Made by a program: the position numbers and the translations under genes. The notes beneath the pieces were generated by a model. The model was not told the origin of the DNA. It ran no database searches and was given only the letters and a program-made list of their open reading frames with translations. Shown piece by piece: positions 33,870 through 40,405 of a stretch of DNA of 64,000 nucleotides. How positions within the stretch are numbered: the first letter of the stretch is position 1; each line of letters begins with the position of its first letter. The stretch covers positions 1 through 64,000 of the IMG/VR virus record IMGVR_UViG_3300027833_000021, one strand, 5' to 3'. The DNA comes from a virus.

Positions 33870-34621
33870 GTAAATTAAAACTTGTAAATACTTTATCAGA
33901 AAGTAGATTATTCAGAACAAAACAAATGGCTGGCAGTGTCAAAATTGATGATGCCGCAGAATTAGTTTTTGTTCATTTACTTATATTGAATATCTTTAAT
34001 AAAGATTATGACTTCTCTCCGTTGGCTGGTGATATAGCATCACGTACAATGTCTTATAGAAACTTTGATTACTTTAGAACTAATGGCACCGATATGTACA
34101 TGGCTCTCAATCGTTTGATGGGCAAAGATAATGATATTGGTGATAATGAAAAAGATGAAATAGCAAAGAGTAGACTTTCATTACAGAAAGCAGACGTTTT
34201 GAGATTTCTACTTCATTTCTCTAATAATAGAAGTGATGCATCTTTTGAACAAAGATACTTACTAAGATACCAAAGAAACCTTAATATACAAGATGGATTG
34301 TTAAAATCTTTACGTAGATTAGTTGGTGATTGGGATAATCTTAATCAAAATCAAAGAGCCTTGGTAGTTACAAGACTAGTACAATATATGCGTAGAAAGG
34401 CAAGACTTGCTGAAATAATGCCAGCACTTCTAAAATTACAGAAACGTGGTAATTATATGCATAAAGATAGTGATGAGGCTAAAGATACAGTCAAAAAAGT
34501 ATGGGATAACCCAATAGTTAAGGCTGGTGCCGCAATTGCAGGCTATAAGGCAGTACAATCACTAGGTAGAAGATTAGGTGCTACTACGTACACTACTGAT
34601 AGAAAACTTCGTAAGTTTTAA
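33866..34621 (+). CDS. Hypothetical (putative head-packaged) protein
   Basis: N-terminal LSE|S cleavage-like site; late operon. Confidence 0.65.
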   Translation: MSKLKLVNTLSESRLFRTKQMAGSVKIDDAAELVFVHLLILNIFNKDYDFSPLAGDIASRTMSYRNFDYFRTNGTDMYMALNRLMGKDNDIGDNEKDEIAKSRLSLQKADVLRFLLHFSNNRSDASFEQRYLLRYQRNLNIQDGLLKSLRRLVGDWDNLNQNQRALVVTRLVQYMRRKARLAEIMPALLKLQKRGNYMHKDSDEAKDTVKKVWDNPIVKAGAAIAGYKAVQSLGRRLGATTYTTDRKLRKF

Positions 34622-34661
34622 TCAAAATCCATAAACAACGTCTTAATTATCCTCACTTTTT

Positions 34662-34669
34662 GATAAATA
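34662..34669 (+). promoter_or_regulatory. T4-late-like promoter GATAAATA
   Basis: Octamer upstream of structured leader. Confidence 0.65.
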
Positions 34670-34756
34670 AGTGTGTAGGGTTATGAAACCCTAACAGTAA
34701 AGACTACGAGATACTATCTCAAAGTTTAAATTAACATTCTTTTAAGGAGAAATAAA

Positions 34757-35047
34757 ATGGCTTCAAATACACTAGGTGGACAATCAAACGGTCTAGGTTC
34801 AAAAACTACAATCGTTAAATTAGCACTAACAAACATGACAGCGGCTAACTTAGGCACTATCTATGCGGCAATGGGCGCATTAGGTCACACAGTTGCTGGT
34901 TCAGGTACAGCAGACGGTTCAGCATTCGTGGCTGGCACAACTGACGTATTATTCATCGCTCTACAAGGCGTTGACTATACAGCAGACGCTACAAATGCCC
35001 ACGGCGTAACTGGCGCGGTTACTACTGTTGAAGCAGTAATTGGCTAA
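34757..35047 (+). CDS. Small Ala/Gly/Thr-rich virion protein
   Basis: TAAGGAG RBS; monocistronic late unit with terminator. Confidence 0.7.
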   Translation: MASNTLGGQSNGLGSKTTIVKLALTNMTAANLGTIYAAMGALGHTVAGSGTADGSAFVAGTTDVLFIALQGVDYTADATNAHGVTGAVTTVEAVIG

Positions 35048-35069
35048 TACCTAAACTTTTAATTAAGTG

Positions 35070-35098
35070 AAAAAGCCCTCTTTATGAGGGCTTTTTTT
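35070..35098 (+). terminator. Rho-independent terminator
   Basis: AAAAGCCCTC/GAGGGCTTTT. Confidence 0.85.
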
Positions 35099-35128
35099 AT
35101 GTCTAAACATATCCTTTTAATCTTTTTA

Positions 35129-35136
35129 TATAAATA
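35129..35136 (+). promoter_or_regulatory. Late promoter TATAAATA
   Basis: Exact T4 late consensus, 200 nt upstream of giant fibre gene. Confidence 0.7.
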
Positions 35137-35140
35137 CATG

Positions 35141-35304
35141 TGTAAGAGATTCAACTCTTACAGATGGTTGAGATATCTTCCGACCAATCAGATGCATGAG
35201 ACTTTTCCGTGCAGTACATTGAGAATCCTTCCGATGTATAAAAAATAAAAATAAGTAAAATAAACGTTATGTATATTATTTCATGGAATGGTCCGTGGAG
35301 TAAT
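35141..35304 (+). ncRNA. Structured 5' leader with tandem hairpins sharing TGAGA..TTCCG
   Basis: Five hairpins; three share the same apical motif with different stem sequences. Confidence 0.6.
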
Positions 35305-35335
35305 TAATAACAATGGCTAATTATAGGAGATAATA

Positions 35336-38300
35336 ATGGCTGATATTAAAAACTTTGGTATCCGTGGTATAGGTGCTGATGTTCAGTTCGGTAAGTCGGG
35401 CGGTCGTGTTGTATATGATTCAGGTAATTCCCTGTTCAAAGTAACAACTGACGGTACTACTTTAGGTAACATGAATGTTGCAACTCCAACTTCGGACAAC
35501 CATGCGGCAAACAAGAGTTATGTTGACTCAATCGCTTCTGGACTTGATGTTAAACAATCAGTTCGTGCGGCTTCAACAGCAGATGTAACTCTAAGTGGAC
35601 CGGGCGCAACAATCGATGGCGTAACTATGTCATCAGGTGACCGTGTTCTACTAAAAAACCAGTCGGCAGCGGCTGAAAATGGTATCTATCTATGGACAGG
35701 TGCGGCGTCAGCAATGACACGTGCAACTGATATGGACGGTGCCGCTGAATTTGTTGGCGCTTTTTTCTTTGTTGAAGAAGGTACAATAAACTCAGACCAA
35801 GGCTTTGTATGTTCAACTAACGGTACAATTACTGTTGATACAACTGCAATCGCCTTTACACAATTCACAGGTACTGGTCAGTTAACAGCAGGTAATGGTT
35901 TATCTAAATCAGGTAACACATTCAATATTAACGTTGACGATACATTTGTGGAAATTAATGGTTCAGATGAACTAACTATTAGAGGTACTTCGACTACTGG
36001 TCAAGCACTACTTTCAGACGGTTCAAATGGTGTAACATATGGTGCAGTTAACTTAACTTCTTCAAGTGCAGTTACTGGTGCTTTACCATTAACAAACGGC
36101 GGTTTAGGTGTTGATGCATCTGATTCATCAGGCAAAACTACAGCACGTTCAAACTTAGGTTTGGGCTCAATGGCTACTCAGAACTCTGGTTCTGTTGCTA
36201 TTACAGGCGGTTCAATTGATATTTCTGGTGGTACATTAACTCTAGCAAATGACCAAATCTCTGGTAACTCAATTTCTGGTGGTACAATTGACTCAGCGAA
36301 CCTTTCAGGTGGCGCAGGCAAGACTATCTCTGGTTTCGATGTAACAATCGCGGCTGGTAAAACATTAGACGTTGACGGTGCAGTAGATATCGATGCTTCA
36401 AGTGGTAACATGGATGGCGTTGCTATCGGTGGTACAACTTCAGCGGCTGGTACATTTACAACTATGGCTTCTGACTCAGTAGATATTAATGGTGGTGCTG
36501 TTGACGGTACAACTATTGGTGCTAACGTGGCAGCGGCAGGTACATTTACAAACGTAGATGCTACTGGTACAATCAAAACTAATACACTAGACAACTATGA
36601 TGGCACAAACATTACTGTTTCTGCTCCATTGGATGTTACTGGTGATATTACTGTAACTGGTCAAGTCTCTGCGACTACCGGTATGGTTACAGACACAATT
36701 GCTGAATTAACTGGTAATGCTGGTGTAACTGTTGATAGTGTTGTACTTAAAGACGGTGTTGTAACTGGTGATTTAACTGGTGATGTAACTGGTGATGTAA
36801 CTGGTAACTTAACAGGTAACTCTGCTGGTGTTCATACAGGTAATGTAACTGGTAACTTAACTGGTAACAGTGCAGGTGTTCATACAGGCGCAGTAACTGG
36901 TAATGTAACTGGTGATGTAACTGGTAACTTAACAGGTAACTCTGCTGGTGTTCATACAGGTAATGTAACTGGTAATGTAACTGGTGATGTAACTGGTGAT
37001 GTAGCAGGTGATGTAACTTCAACTGGAACTTCAACGTTTGCAACTGTTGACGTTAACGGCGGTGCAGTAGATGGAACAGTAATTGGTGCTAACACATCAG
37101 CGGCTGGTACTTTCTCAACAATGACAACAGCAGATGCGGCTATAACAGGCGGTGCTATTTCAGGAACAAGTATTGACCTTTCAGGACAAACTTTGACATT
37201 GACTTCGGACTCTGTGTCTGGTGATTCAGTTCATGGTGGTACTATTTCTAACTTCGCATCAACTGGTATTGACGATAATGCATCATCAACAGCATTGACA
37301 ATCGATTCAAGTCAAAATGCTACATTTGGTTCAGACTTAACAGTTACTGGTGACTTAACAGTTAACGGTTCTGTAACTTCAATCTCTTCAACTAACACTA
37401 CTATCGAAGACAACACAATTGTTTTAAACAATGGTGAGTCTGGTGCTGGTGTAACTGAAGGTTCAGCAGGTATTTCTATCGACCGTGGTACAGCGGATGA
37501 TGCACTTATCAACTGGAATGAGACAACAGATGAGTTCGAACTAAAAGTTGGTGCTTCATATGGTGACTTAAAAGTTTCAGCACTTACAGGTGATGTAACT
37601 GGTGCCCTAACTGGTAACGTAACAGGTAATGTAACTGGTAATGTAACAGGTAATGTAACTGGTGATTTAACAGGTGATGTAACTGGTGATTTAACTGGTG
37701 ACGTAACAGGTAATGTAACTGGTAATACTGCTGGTGTTCATACTGGTAATGTAACTGGTAACGTAACAGGTAACGTAACTGGTGATTTAACTGGTGACTC
37801 TGCTGGTACACATACTGGTGCAGTTGTTGGTAACGTAACAGGTAACGTAACTGGTGATTTAACTGGTGATGTAACTGGTGATGTAACTGGTGATGTAACT
37901 GGTGATTTAACAGGTAACTCTGCTGGTACACATACTGGTGCGGTTGTTGGTAATGTAACTGGTAACTTAACAGGTAACGTAACAGGTAATGTTTCTGGCA
38001 ATGCTGGAACAGTAACTAACGGTGTTTATACAACTGACACTGGAACAGTAACTAACACAATGTTAGCAGGTTCAATTGGTAATGCTAAATTATCAAATAG
38101 TTCATTTACTGTTGGTTCAACTGCGATTAACCTTGGTGATACAACGACAAGTCTTGCAGGCTTATCTTCAGTAACATCAACGGCATTCGTAGGTGATTTA
38201 ACTGGTGACGTAACTGGTGATACTGCTGGTACTCATACTGGTGCAGTAACTGGTAACGTAACTGGTAACATTACTTCAGCAGGTACAAGTACATTTACAG

Positions 38301-40405
38301 ACGTTGACGTTAACGGCGGTGTTATTGATGGAACAACTATTGGTGCAACATCATCAGCGGCTGGTACATTCTCAACATTGGCATCTGCTTCAGCGACATT
38401 AACTGGTGGTACTGCTACTGGCATGACAACAGTTACAGCGACTAACCTAAACTCAGGTAACGTTGGTATTACTGGTGGTTCTATTTCAGGAACATCAATC
38501 GACTTATCAGGTCAAACCCTAACTCTAGGTAATGACTCAGTTTCAGGTGACTCAATCCACGGTGGTACTATTTCTAACGCTTCATTGGCCGGTGACGCTA
38601 CCGACACAATGACTGGTTATGATATTACTGTTGGTGCGGGACGTGAATTAGACGTATCTTCGGGTACTCTAACACTAGGTGCTAACCAGATTTCTGGTGA
38701 TAAAGTACACGGTGGCACAATCTCTGATTTTGCTTCAACTGGTATCGATGATAACGCTACATCAACTAAAGTAACTCTATCTGATACAACTGCAACATTT
38801 GGTGTTGCTGGTGACTTCGGTTCTAACGACCTAGACGCCGGTGCTTCAACACTTGGTTCGCTTTCTGTAACAGGTAATGCTTCAATTACTGGTAACTTGA
38901 CAGTTTCTGGTTCAGTAACTACAACTTTATCTGAGATTGTAAATATCGAAGATAACAACATTGTTCTTAACTCAAACGCAACTGGTTCGGCTACTGCTGA
39001 TGCTGGTATTACGATTGAGCGTGGTGATGATGATAATGCTGTTGTTCTCTGGAACGAAACTTCAAATGCATTCGAACTTACTGTAGGCGCGGCTAAGGCT
39101 GACCTAACAGTTAATGATTTGACTGTAAATGAGATGACACTAGCAACTGACCTTGCGGCAAGCATGGGTGGTACGGGTACTGATACTTCAGCATTCGCGG
39201 CTTCATCTATCATGTTAAACAGTGGTTCAGGTACAGTAACAGAATTGGCGAAAGGTGCTAACTCAACTGTATTAAAAGTTGGTTCAACTGGTACTCTAGG
39301 TTATGCAAAAGTCGATTTGACTGCTGACGTAACTGGTACAATGCCAATAGCAAATGGTGGTACAGGTATCACTTCAGCAGGTTCTGATAATAAAGTTATG
39401 ACTTCAGACGGTTCTGCATTAGGTATGGAATATGTACAACATGTACGTAATTCAACTGGTGTAGTTGCGTTAGACGGTTCTGGCGTTACTTCAGGTTCTG
39501 GTGAATATATCGCAATTACTAACGCTACTGGTAAAGTAACACTAACAGCCAAAAATGCGGCGGCATCTGGTGCTGTAGATATGTATCTACAAGGCCAAGG
39601 TGGCGGTGACGTATTTATTGTTGGTCAATCTGGCGAAGCCTTAATTCAAGGTGAAAACGATACAGACCTAACAGTTGCTGGTGGTGATGCTTCTGGCGGT
39701 GATGCTGGTGACTTAATCATCAAAGGTGGTAACGGTACAGGCGGTAACGCCTCTGGTGCAGTTGTCATTAAAGGTGGTAACGGTGGTGCATCAGACGGAA
39801 ACGTTCAAATTAAAGGTGCAGATGATACAGCAATCGCTACTTTCGTAGAGACTGCCTCAGCAACTGACTCTTTAACAGTAACTAACGGAACTGGCGGTGT
39901 AGAACTAGCAATGTCTGGTGGCACAAACGTCAACATGAACTTAGCACCAAAAGGCGCAGGTATTATTCTTGCACCAAATGGCTATGACATGTCTTCAGCG
40001 GCAGACCACGCCCTAGCAACTAAAGAATATGTAGATGACAAAGCGTCAACTTCAGGTTCTTCTGGTACTAGACGTGTTGAGTTTACTGCTAACGGTTCTT
40101 CATCATTTACAATCGGCACAATGGCTAACATTTCAGGAAAAACTTATTACATTAAGCGTATCACTGCAAAAGTTACTACTGCGTTTGTTGGTTGTGATGA
40201 ATTAGTCGTTTCTGACGGTACAAATACTCTAATGTCTGCAAGTGAGGCTGACCTTTCTGAAGGCGGTTTATATATTGTTGATTTAGGTTTTGACGATGCT
40301 ACAACAGGCGGCGCAACTATTACTGGTACTTTACAGAATGGCGGCTCATCTGCTTCACCTACAACTGGTGTTATAATTGTTACTGCGGAATACAAGCAAC
40401 TCTAA
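35336..40405 (+). CDS. Giant Gly/Thr/Ser-rich fibre/virion structural protein (1689 aa)
   Basis: AANKSYVD..ASGLDVK, LATKEYVD, TG[DN][VL] repeats, duplicated modules. Confidence 0.8.
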   Translation: MADIKNFGIRGIGADVQFGKSGGRVVYDSGNSLFKVTTDGTTLGNMNVATPTSDNHAANKSYVDSIASGLDVKQSVRAASTADVTLSGPGATIDGVTMSSGDRVLLKNQSAAAENGIYLWTGAASAMTRATDMDGAAEFVGAFFFVEEGTINSDQGFVCSTNGTITVDTTAIAFTQFTGTGQLTAGNGLSKSGNTFNINVDDTFVEINGSDELTIRGTSTTGQALLSDGSNGVTYGAVNLTSSSAVTGALPLTNGGLGVDASDSSGKTTARSNLGLGSMATQNSGSVAITGGSIDISGGTLTLANDQISGNSISGGTIDSANLSGGAGKTISGFDVTIAAGKTLDVDGAVDIDASSGNMDGVAIGGTTSAAGTFTTMASDSVDINGGAVDGTTIGANVAAAGTFTNVDATGTIKTNTLDNYDGTNITVSAPLDVTGDITVTGQVSATTGMVTDTIAELTGNAGVTVDSVVLKDGVVTGDLTGDVTGDVTGNLTGNSAGVHTGNVTGNLTGNSAGVHTGAVTGNVTGDVTGNLTGNSAGVHTGNVTGNVTGDVTGDVAGDVTSTGTSTFATVDVNGGAVDGTVIGANTSAAGTFSTMTTADAAITGGAISGTSIDLSGQTLTLTSDSVSGDSVHGGTISNFASTGIDDNASSTALTIDSSQNATFGSDLTVTGDLTVNGSVTSISSTNTTIEDNTIVLNNGESGAGVTEGSAGISIDRGTADDALINWNETTDEFELKVGASYGDLKVSALTGDVTGALTGNVTGNVTGNVTGNVTGDLTGDVTGDLTGDVTGNVTGNTAGVHTGNVTGNVTGNVTGDLTGDSAGTHTGAVVGNVTGNVTGDLTGDVTGDVTGDVTGDLTGNSAGTHTGAVVGNVTGNLTGNVTGNVSGNAGTVTNGVYTTDTGTVTNTMLAGSIGNAKLSNSSFTVGSTAINLGDTTTSLAGLSSVTSTAFVGDLTGDVTGDTAGTHTGAVTGNVTGNITSAGTSTFTDVDVNGGVIDGTTIGATSSAAGTFSTLASASATLTGGTATGMTTVTATNLNSGNVGITGGSISGTSIDLSGQTLTLGNDSVSGDSIHGGTISNASLAGDATDTMTGYDITVGAGRELDVSSGTLTLGANQISGDKVHGGTISDFASTGIDDNATSTKVTLSDTTATFGVAGDFGSNDLDAGASTLGSLSVTGNASITGNLTVSGSVTTTLSEIVNIEDNNIVLNSNATGSATADAGITIERGDDDNAVVLWNETSNAFELTVGAAKADLTVNDLTVNEMTLATDLAASMGGTGTDTSAFAASSIMLNSGSGTVTELAKGANSTVLKVGSTGTLGYAKVDLTADVTGTMPIANGGTGITSAGSDNKVMTSDGSALGMEYVQHVRNSTGVVALDGSGVTSGSGEYIAITNATGKVTLTAKNAAASGAVDMYLQGQGGGDVFIVGQSGEALIQGENDTDLTVAGGDASGGDAGDLIIKGGNGTGGNASGAVVIKGGNGGASDGNVQIKGADDTAIATFVETASATDSLTVTNGTGGVELAMSGGTNVNMNLAPKGAGIILAPNGYDMSSAADHALATKEYVDDKASTSGSSGTRRVEFTANGSSSFTIGTMANISGKTYYIKRITAKVTTAFVGCDELVVSDGTNTLMSASEADLSEGGLYIVDLGFDDATTGGATITGTLQNGGSSASPTTGVIIVTAEYKQL
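36761..37020 (+). repeat. 12-bp degenerate tandem repeat encoding TG[DN][VL]
   Basis: ACTGGT(A/G)ATGTA-type units with interspersed AGVH. Confidence 0.9.
37585..37995 (+). repeat. 12-bp degenerate tandem repeat encoding TG[DN][VL], second block
   Basis: Same units, longer array. Confidence 0.9.

Follow-up and report, generated by a model that had tools for sequence, protein, structure and literature searches.

In T4-like phages, one type of promoter serves all late genes, yet the virion proteins that these genes encode are required in very different numbers. How virion protein ratios are set is mostly obscure for uncultured phages, and the leader described here bears on that question. Among the systems described to date, the one that we judge nearest by mechanism is the leader of the MS2 maturation (A) gene, in which a distant upstream tract pairs with the SD sequence and thereby keeps a low-copy virion protein scarce. 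In T4 itself, the SD sequences of the lysozyme gene e and of soc are masked by a local hairpin, which is removed when a late promoter starts transcription inside the helix. RNAIII and RsaE/RoxS of the Firmicutes carry pyrimidine-rich anti-SD loops that act in trans on many targets, and are encoded by separate genes with terminators. Finally, the operators of the leviviruses MS2 and PP7, which work in tandem arrays, consist of a bulged A on the 5' side with two base pairs above it and a small loop.

The locus of interest here is the leader of a giant fibre-like gene, which carries a row of hairpins whose loops are complementary to the SD region of the same mRNA. With the MS2 A-gene leader, it would have in common a structured leader of several hairpins, a far-upstream SD-pairing tract, and the purpose of low translation. 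There is, however, no sequence relation between the two, the present leader belongs to a DNA phage with a late promoter, its tract lies in hairpin loops and is present in one to three copies, and its SD is displayed in a loop, such that the predicted contact is between two loops rather than a closing helix. As in the case of T4 gene e and soc, this is a T4-type phage in which mRNA structure around the SD may set translation, but the entire structured region in this case follows the late promoter, with the pairing partner >140 nt away. RNAIII and RsaE/RoxS likewise have several hairpins with a short C/U-rich, SD-pairing tract in the loop, whereas here these hairpins are part of one mRNA and fit the flank of its own SD.

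The Levivirus operator resembles the hairpins of those clades that carry three of them in its single bulged A, the two pairs above it and the small loop; however, the loops are CUUU, UAUCU or AUCCU rather than the four-base ANYA, and the bulged-A form is absent in clades with a single hairpin. To our knowledge, a levivirus-type coat protein gene is not to be expected in a DNA myovirus. CsrB/RsmZ sponges, too, are rows of similar hairpins with a fixed loop motif, but at this locus GGA is found on the minus strand only, where the stems carry mismatches, and there is no match to these families in Rfam. Stabilizer hairpins of the ompA type, situated at the 5' end of an mRNA, are comparable to the first hairpin of the leader (H1), which lies at the predicted first bases of the transcript, but leave the three hairpins that follow (H2–H4) unexplained. 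The element is not a member of the MS2 A-leader, coat-protein operator or anti-SD small RNA groups, a literature search for a described equivalent found nothing relevant, and we rate the element, as judged from its sequence, as an anti-SD leader of marine jumbo phages that is borne on hairpins and specific to one gene.

The window, that is, the whole 64,000-nt stretch of DNA analyzed here, comprises positions 1–64,000 of IMGVR_UViG_3300027833_000021, the parent contig of which is 115 kb long and rated 31% complete. As relatives of this contig reach up to 342 kb, and one of them has terminal repeats, the source is an uncultured marine jumbo phage. The contig has a G+C content of ~35% and carries T4-like replication and recombination genes (primase, a DnaB-like helicase and UvsX), and its large terminase shows 53% identity to that of the jumbo phage PA5oct and 52% to that of Atu_ph07; the phage is a DNA myovirus. 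All long ORFs of the window with matches to known families lie on the plus strand, and no tRNA or tmRNA was found in the 64-kb window. The features of the locus, in positions of the window, are as follows.

34757–35047: 96-aa gene, rich in Gly, Ala and Thr, upstream of the hairpin leader
35073–35100, plus strand: intrinsic terminator of the 96-aa gene (GCCCTC/GAGGGC stem followed by a T run, as read from the sequence)
35129–35136, plus strand: T4-type late promoter box TATAAATA, exact match
35141–35162, plus strand: H1, hairpin of 8 bp at the predicted 5' terminus of the transcript
35165–35186, plus strand: H2, motif hairpin with loop AGAUAUCUUC at 35171–35180
35193–35213, plus strand: H3, motif hairpin with loop AGACUUUUC
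35215–35238, plus strand: H4, motif hairpin with loop AGAAUCCUUC
35239–35269, plus strand: A-rich spacer, unpaired in the minimum-energy and consensus folds
35275–35304 (core 35276–35303), plus strand: H5, 12-bp hairpin rich in G·U pairs
35315–35341, plus strand: start-site hairpin, in which GGCUA..UUAU pairs with AUAA..UGGCU, with loop AGGAGAUA at 35325–35332
35336–40405, plus strand: gene of the 1689-aa fibre-like virion protein, from the ORF list

Parts of the 1689-aa ORF match PHROG head-decoration, tail-fibre and baseplate families, and the N-terminal domain of the protein has matches to proteins of cultured phages that are annotated as tail fibres; Pfam gave no match in the protein. At E ≤ 1e-40, the protein has 381 relatives; the 120 best-scoring ones (P0003–P0122) are ~1450–2000 aa long, and a few of these 120 are named "fibronectin-binding autotransporter adhesin" by JGI. 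We also note that the G+C content inside the gene is 42–43%, compared to 35% around it.

The contig contains 42 plus-strand and 11 minus-strand copies of ATAAATA, usually in the form GATAAATAC, with corresponding counts of 22 and 2 for GATAAATA, and half of the plus-strand copies of ATAAATA lie 26–41 nt 5' of an SD and ATG. Based on this strand bias and spacing, ATAAATA reads as the T4-type late promoter of this phage, and the box is present in all homologous leaders. As transcripts from T4 late promoters start ~6 nt after the box, the fibre transcript is predicted to begin near position 35142, at the first bases of H1, which would thus lie at the very 5' end. Late leaders elsewhere in the contig are mostly short, making the ~195-nt leader of the fibre-like gene unusual in length, and, among the late promoters of the contig, only those of the fibre-like gene and of the 96-aa gene are immediately followed by a strong hairpin.

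All five hairpins that the initial annotation had read upstream of the fibre-like gene are found in the sequence at the positions given there, and the leader folds far more stably than expected by chance (−52.9 kcal mol–1 for 203 nt, compared to −34.9 ± 3.8 kcal mol–1 for dinucleotide shuffles; z = −4.7). The minimum-energy fold contains H1–H5, as well as a last hairpin over the start site, with the SD GGAG (35326–35329) in its loop and the AUG (35336–35338) in its stem. For the repeated motif, annotated as TGAGA-N3-4-TTCCG, the pattern TGAGA-N2-6-TTCCG has three matches in the window where 0.39 are expected, none of 100 shuffles reaches three, and there is no copy beyond the three of the leader in the 115-kb contig. 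H2–H4 are copies of one module, comprising a variable stem, closing U·G and G–C pairs, and a loop of 9–10 nt. With regard to the apex of this module, the A·C mismatch followed by a G·U pair of the earlier description is better read as a bulged A, as the consensus fold gives G–C, bulged A, G–C, A–U and a loop of 4–5 nt, and a compensatory change of the apical A–U to U–A in H3 of leader L010 supports this register. The apical mini-helix is present in the three-hairpin clades only. A small ORF that runs across the hairpins (35084–35248, 54 aa) was considered and rejected, as it starts upstream of the promoter and the indels in the H1 loop of relatives are not multiples of three.

Homologous loci were searched for in IMG/VR and marine metagenomes with the N-terminal 300 residues of the fibre-like protein, giving 67 distinct homologous leaders among the marine viral and metagenome loci listed, a set that leaves out 322 further metagenome relatives and ten lineages of the protein search (P0120, P0103, P0113, P0111, P0112, P0121, P0087, P0095, P0119 and P0031). 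Further scans of viral contigs with L287, L221 and P0120 gave no new leaders. Common to all clades are the promoter box, a hairpin at the 5' end, a conserved GCUA(U) shortly ahead of the SD, and the start AUGGC; this GCUA(U) is the arm of the start-site hairpin, found in all clades at a varying distance to the SD. The copy number of the motif hairpin differs, being three in a monophyletic group (100/99 support) that includes the window, two in L221, one in the other clades, and zero in the long-branch L283. More distant marine T4-like phages that share the N-terminus carry short leaders lacking the motif. The A-rich spacer varies in length, with an extra hairpin inserted in some relatives.

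The hairpins are kept upstream of homologous genes, and compensatory changes preserve the pairing of their stems, as had been proposed from the single locus. Among 26 motif hairpins of relatives, pairing of the 6-bp lower stem reaches 100% of cells, a value that is partly by construction as these hairpins were chosen with a filter of at least 5 bp, and four of the six pairs change on both sides. An unfiltered RNAalifold analysis of 38 whole leaders recovers H1–H5 and the start-site hairpin, with compensatory changes at 16 of 52 pairs. In this alignment, 10 of the 38 leaders show a two-sided change at the H1 pair of columns 18/32, and three stem pairs of H2 and four of H4 covary. Stem pairs of H3 covary as well, and many pairs of H5 switch between G·U and A–U or G–C, several of them changing on both sides. 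As the closing U·G is kept in 21 of the 26 motif hairpins, and both this pair and the many G·U pairs of H5 are mismatches on the minus strand, the structure is a plus-strand RNA.

The element is, furthermore, tied to one gene. A covariance model of the hairpin was run on five phage records: the contig of the window and four relatives, two of them 342 kb long with completeness ratings of 100% and 92%. Only the leader copies scored, apart from two weak matches (E ~0.13) inside a coding region in G003 and G004. A pattern of two adjacent motifs has 40 matches over 2.9 million IMG/VR viral contigs. Those with 6–8-bp stems (22 of the 40) all lie in leaders of these fibre-like genes, and the other 18, which have no such stems, look like chance matches or coding repeats. 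We therefore rejected a regulon-wide operator, as the covariance model gives leader copies only and hairpin-embedded arrays are found only in fibre leaders. In a cmscan of positions 34000–36500 against Rfam 15 (E up to 10), no family reached its threshold and nothing was found on H2–H4; the weak leader and small RNA matches fall only on the terminator-like hairpin upstream, the best of them at 27.5 bits against a threshold of 55.

On their 3' side, the motif loops finish with (U)CUUC next to the closing C, a sequence complementary to the SD core GGAG(A). In the window, this complementarity extends further, such that the H2 tract UAUCUUC (35174–35180) can form 7 bp with GGAGAUA of the start region, at −6.9 kcal mol–1 and between two loops, while the H3 loop has ~5 bp of complementarity to the SD. 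When every 12-nt stretch of a leader was scanned against its own start region, the motif loop ranked first in the single-hairpin leaders scanned (−8.5 to −11.7 kcal mol–1), with the exceptions of the L033 type (second) and L215 (ties first), and H2 ranked first or second in clade A. Across clades A, B and C, the complementarity is 7–9 bp at −6.9 to −11.7 kcal mol–1. The calculated cost of opening the two partners is small, at 2.45 kcal mol–1 for the loop tract and 0.32 kcal mol–1 for the SD tract, and the loop–SD duplexes (−6.9, −9.4 and −8.5 kcal mol–1) are as strong as those of the 16S tail with the same SD (−7.3, −9.2 and −7.3 kcal mol–1).

The loop and the start region also correspond in their variable letters. 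UAUCUUC occurs with GGAGAUA (UAUC/GAUA) in 32 of 32 distinct clade-A leaders, GUUUCUUC with GGAGAAAC (GUUUC/GAAAC) in all 15 distinct leaders of that type, and GUUCUUC with GGAGAAC (GUUC/GAAC) in all six of a third. A loop placed on its own start region extends the core by 3–4 pairs, compared to 1–2 when cross-paired to the other two types. Permutation of those loop letters that lie outside the core yields P = 0.067, 0.067 and 0.114, which our Fisher combination brings to ~0.02, a modest signal carried by approximately three independent types of loop and start region. We note that the CUUC/GGAG core never varies, so that covariation cannot test the core, and that the leaders look like mosaics when set against the protein tree, which prevents a clean count of evolutionary events; a count of co-changes on the protein tree was dropped for this reason. 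The extended pairing is not universal among clades, with a core of only 5–6 bp in the basal three-hairpin clade (L243, L246, L253, L256, L263 and L280), in L276, in L221 and in L033-like leaders, and chance alone can readily pair a U-rich loop with an A-rich start region.

The pattern of conservation within clade A (31 distinct leaders) bears on the same point. Here, only 1 of 10 columns is variable in the H2 loop and 2 of 29 in the start-site hairpin, these being the two least variable parts of the leader, compared to 7 of 9 columns in the H3 loop (10 versions) and 8 of 10 in the H4 loop (7 versions). Of the three motif hairpins, only the one with a fit to the SD flank thus has its variable loop letters frozen.

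Taking these observations into account, the evidence points more to RNA–RNA masking of the ribosome-binding site than to a protein operator or a small RNA, and we put at about even the chances that the element is a cis-acting translational throttle, the loops of which mask the SD of the fibre-like gene itself. According to this model, the late mRNA would start ~6 nt past TATAAATA, with H1 at its very 5' end, where it probably protects the mRNA. The start region would form a weak hairpin, with the SD exposed in the loop and the AUG held in the stem, and the H2 loop UAUCUUC would pair with the start loop GGAGAUA in a 7-bp loop–loop contact. This contact would then compete with the 30S subunit, leading to less translation of a very large protein, with H3 and H4 as weaker spare copies of 4–5 bp. 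That the contact forms in the cell and represses translation is what we infer from the sequences of the loops and start regions.

The initial annotation had instead suggested a multivalent protein-binding operator, for example to control fibre stoichiometry, or a standalone small RNA or sponge. What holds of this proposal is the presence of a conserved, structured RNA of regulatory appearance, for which control of fibre output is plausible; the two mechanisms themselves are no more than candidates. In the first of these, the hairpins would be sites for a protein (the fibre protein itself, an assembly factor or a translational repressor of the phage) that binds one to three copies and thereby sets fibre output, and the likeness to an anti-SD sequence would be secondary. 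We regard this as a strong competitor of masking by the loops, though a less likely one. The stems vary while the closing U·G and G–C pairs, the bulged A, the mini-helix of G–C and A–U and the small loop are kept, which is the architecture of the coat-protein operators of the leviviruses; the tandem copies suggest multivalent binding, and those clades that have only the 5-bp core nevertheless keep the motif. Against this stand the confinement of the motif to one gene, which leaves no regulon, and the absence of the apical mini-helix from the single-hairpin clades. Furthermore, a RegA-type protein (PF01818) was matched neither in the contig nor in the two near-complete 342-kb relatives (100% and 92% complete), in a search whose control likewise matched the family nowhere. 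Binding of a protein would also leave unexplained both the loop letters that match SD-adjacent bases in three clades and the freezing of H2 alone in clade A.

A protein operator and the anti-SD tract could also act together, with the module as the operator of a new gene-specific RNA-binding regulator of giant marine phages (for example, the conserved N-terminal domain of the fibre protein or its assembly factor) that feeds back on its own mRNA, such that operator copy number, from one to three, and the anti-SD tract would jointly tune fibre stoichiometry. We consider this doubtful; if true, it would amount to a new circuit of autogenous control in virion assembly.

It is unlikely that the hairpins serve mRNA stability or processing only, by obstructing RNase E and exonucleases in the vicinity of an A-rich cleavage site, with loops whose sequence plays no specific part. 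The position of H1 at the predicted 5' end, the A-rich unpaired spacer between H1–H4 and H5, and the 5' hairpin with which the upstream 96-aa gene also begins are all in line with such a role. However, the loops are conserved across clades while the stems drift, when a pure barrier needs stems only, and the module occurs in one to three copies at the fibre-like gene only.

Quite improbable, in our view, is that H1–H4 (~100 nt) are cut off to give a trans-acting small RNA, the pyrimidine-rich loops of which would mask GGAG sites of phage or host mRNAs. The core UCUUC does fit the common GGAG(A) SD of the genes of this phage, a hairpin at each end would make for a stable fragment, and three loops would provide multivalency. 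However, a scan found no plus-strand terminator within 35141–35335, H4 being followed by an A-rich run, and so a standalone RNA of the kind initially proposed would need processing by a hypothetical cleavage; moreover, the extended H2 tract fits the SD flank of its own gene and not a general one.

Finally, a functional minus strand, with GGA in each loop (GGAAGA, similar to the GGA loops of CsrB/RsmZ), a sigma-70-like match at 35349–35320 and an H1 that scores as terminator-like on that strand, or a reading of the repeats as DNA sites, is scarcely credible and was rejected on account of the G·U pairs and the stem covariation, as the U·G pair of 21 of 26 hairpins and many G·U pairs of H5 become C·A or A·C mismatches on the minus strand, the long ORFs with known families are all on the plus strand of the window, and stems that change sequence yet keep pairing cannot be protein sites in duplex DNA.

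Whichever mechanism applies, the leader is a conserved and covarying RNA element of a single giant fibre-like gene, present in a widespread group of marine jumbo phages and absent from Rfam, and is a good candidate for a new RNA family. If the contact between loop and SD is real, the leader would also be a compact natural example of translation set by a loop–loop contact, would illustrate the evolution of the copy number of a module from one to three, and would offer a ready design for tunable synthetic leaders.

A number of further observations concern the leader and its surroundings. In L009, L021, L023 and L055, the extra hairpin between the A-rich spacer and H5 is AAGAAUCC-UUUUU-GAGGUAAUUCU, which looks like a decayed fourth copy of the module, derived from H4, and which suggests that the module multiplies by tandem duplication. 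In members of the basal three-hairpin clade (L246, L280, L243 and L263), the H5 loop, ~40–50 nt before the start codon, reads AAUUUUC or UUUCUU and is complementary to the SD flank (GAAAAUU or GAGAAA), ranking first as partner of the start region; this pairing may be a replacement, or may be due to chance, as U-rich loops easily meet A-rich start regions.

In clade A, the AUGGCU in the 5' arm of the start-site hairpin (35314–35337) opens a mini-ORF of six codons (AUG GCU AAU UAU AGG AGA UAA UAA), which extends over the SD, ends in UAAUAAUG and overlaps the main AUG. A similar mini-ORF is present in L036, and, as most clades have no AUG at that place, the clade-A mini-ORF is probably incidental.

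The unit of the upstream 96-aa gene (34663–35100) is self-contained, with its own GATAAATA promoter (34662–34669), a 5' hairpin similar to H1, a strong SD and a terminator. Its product has no match among Pfam or PHROG families. The gene precedes the fibre-like gene only in the clade of the window; in other clades, a different gene, ending in ...VTVTYV, lies directly before the promoter. The leader of the 96-aa gene contains a small hairpin, GAGAU-ACU-AUCUC, at 34708–34720, the 3' arm of which (UAUCUC) complements GAGAUA in the start region of the fibre-like gene; this would be relevant for read-through transcripts only and may be a chance match.

The short leader of the distant marine T4-like phages, which share the N-terminus MADIKNFG (L169–L202; for example, L171:1400–1500), is itself conserved, and comprises an ATAAATA box, a 5' hairpin (GUAACGUU...AACGUUA) and the palindrome GUUAUCGAUAAC, with the SD in the loop of a small hairpin, GUAU-UAGGAG-AUAC.
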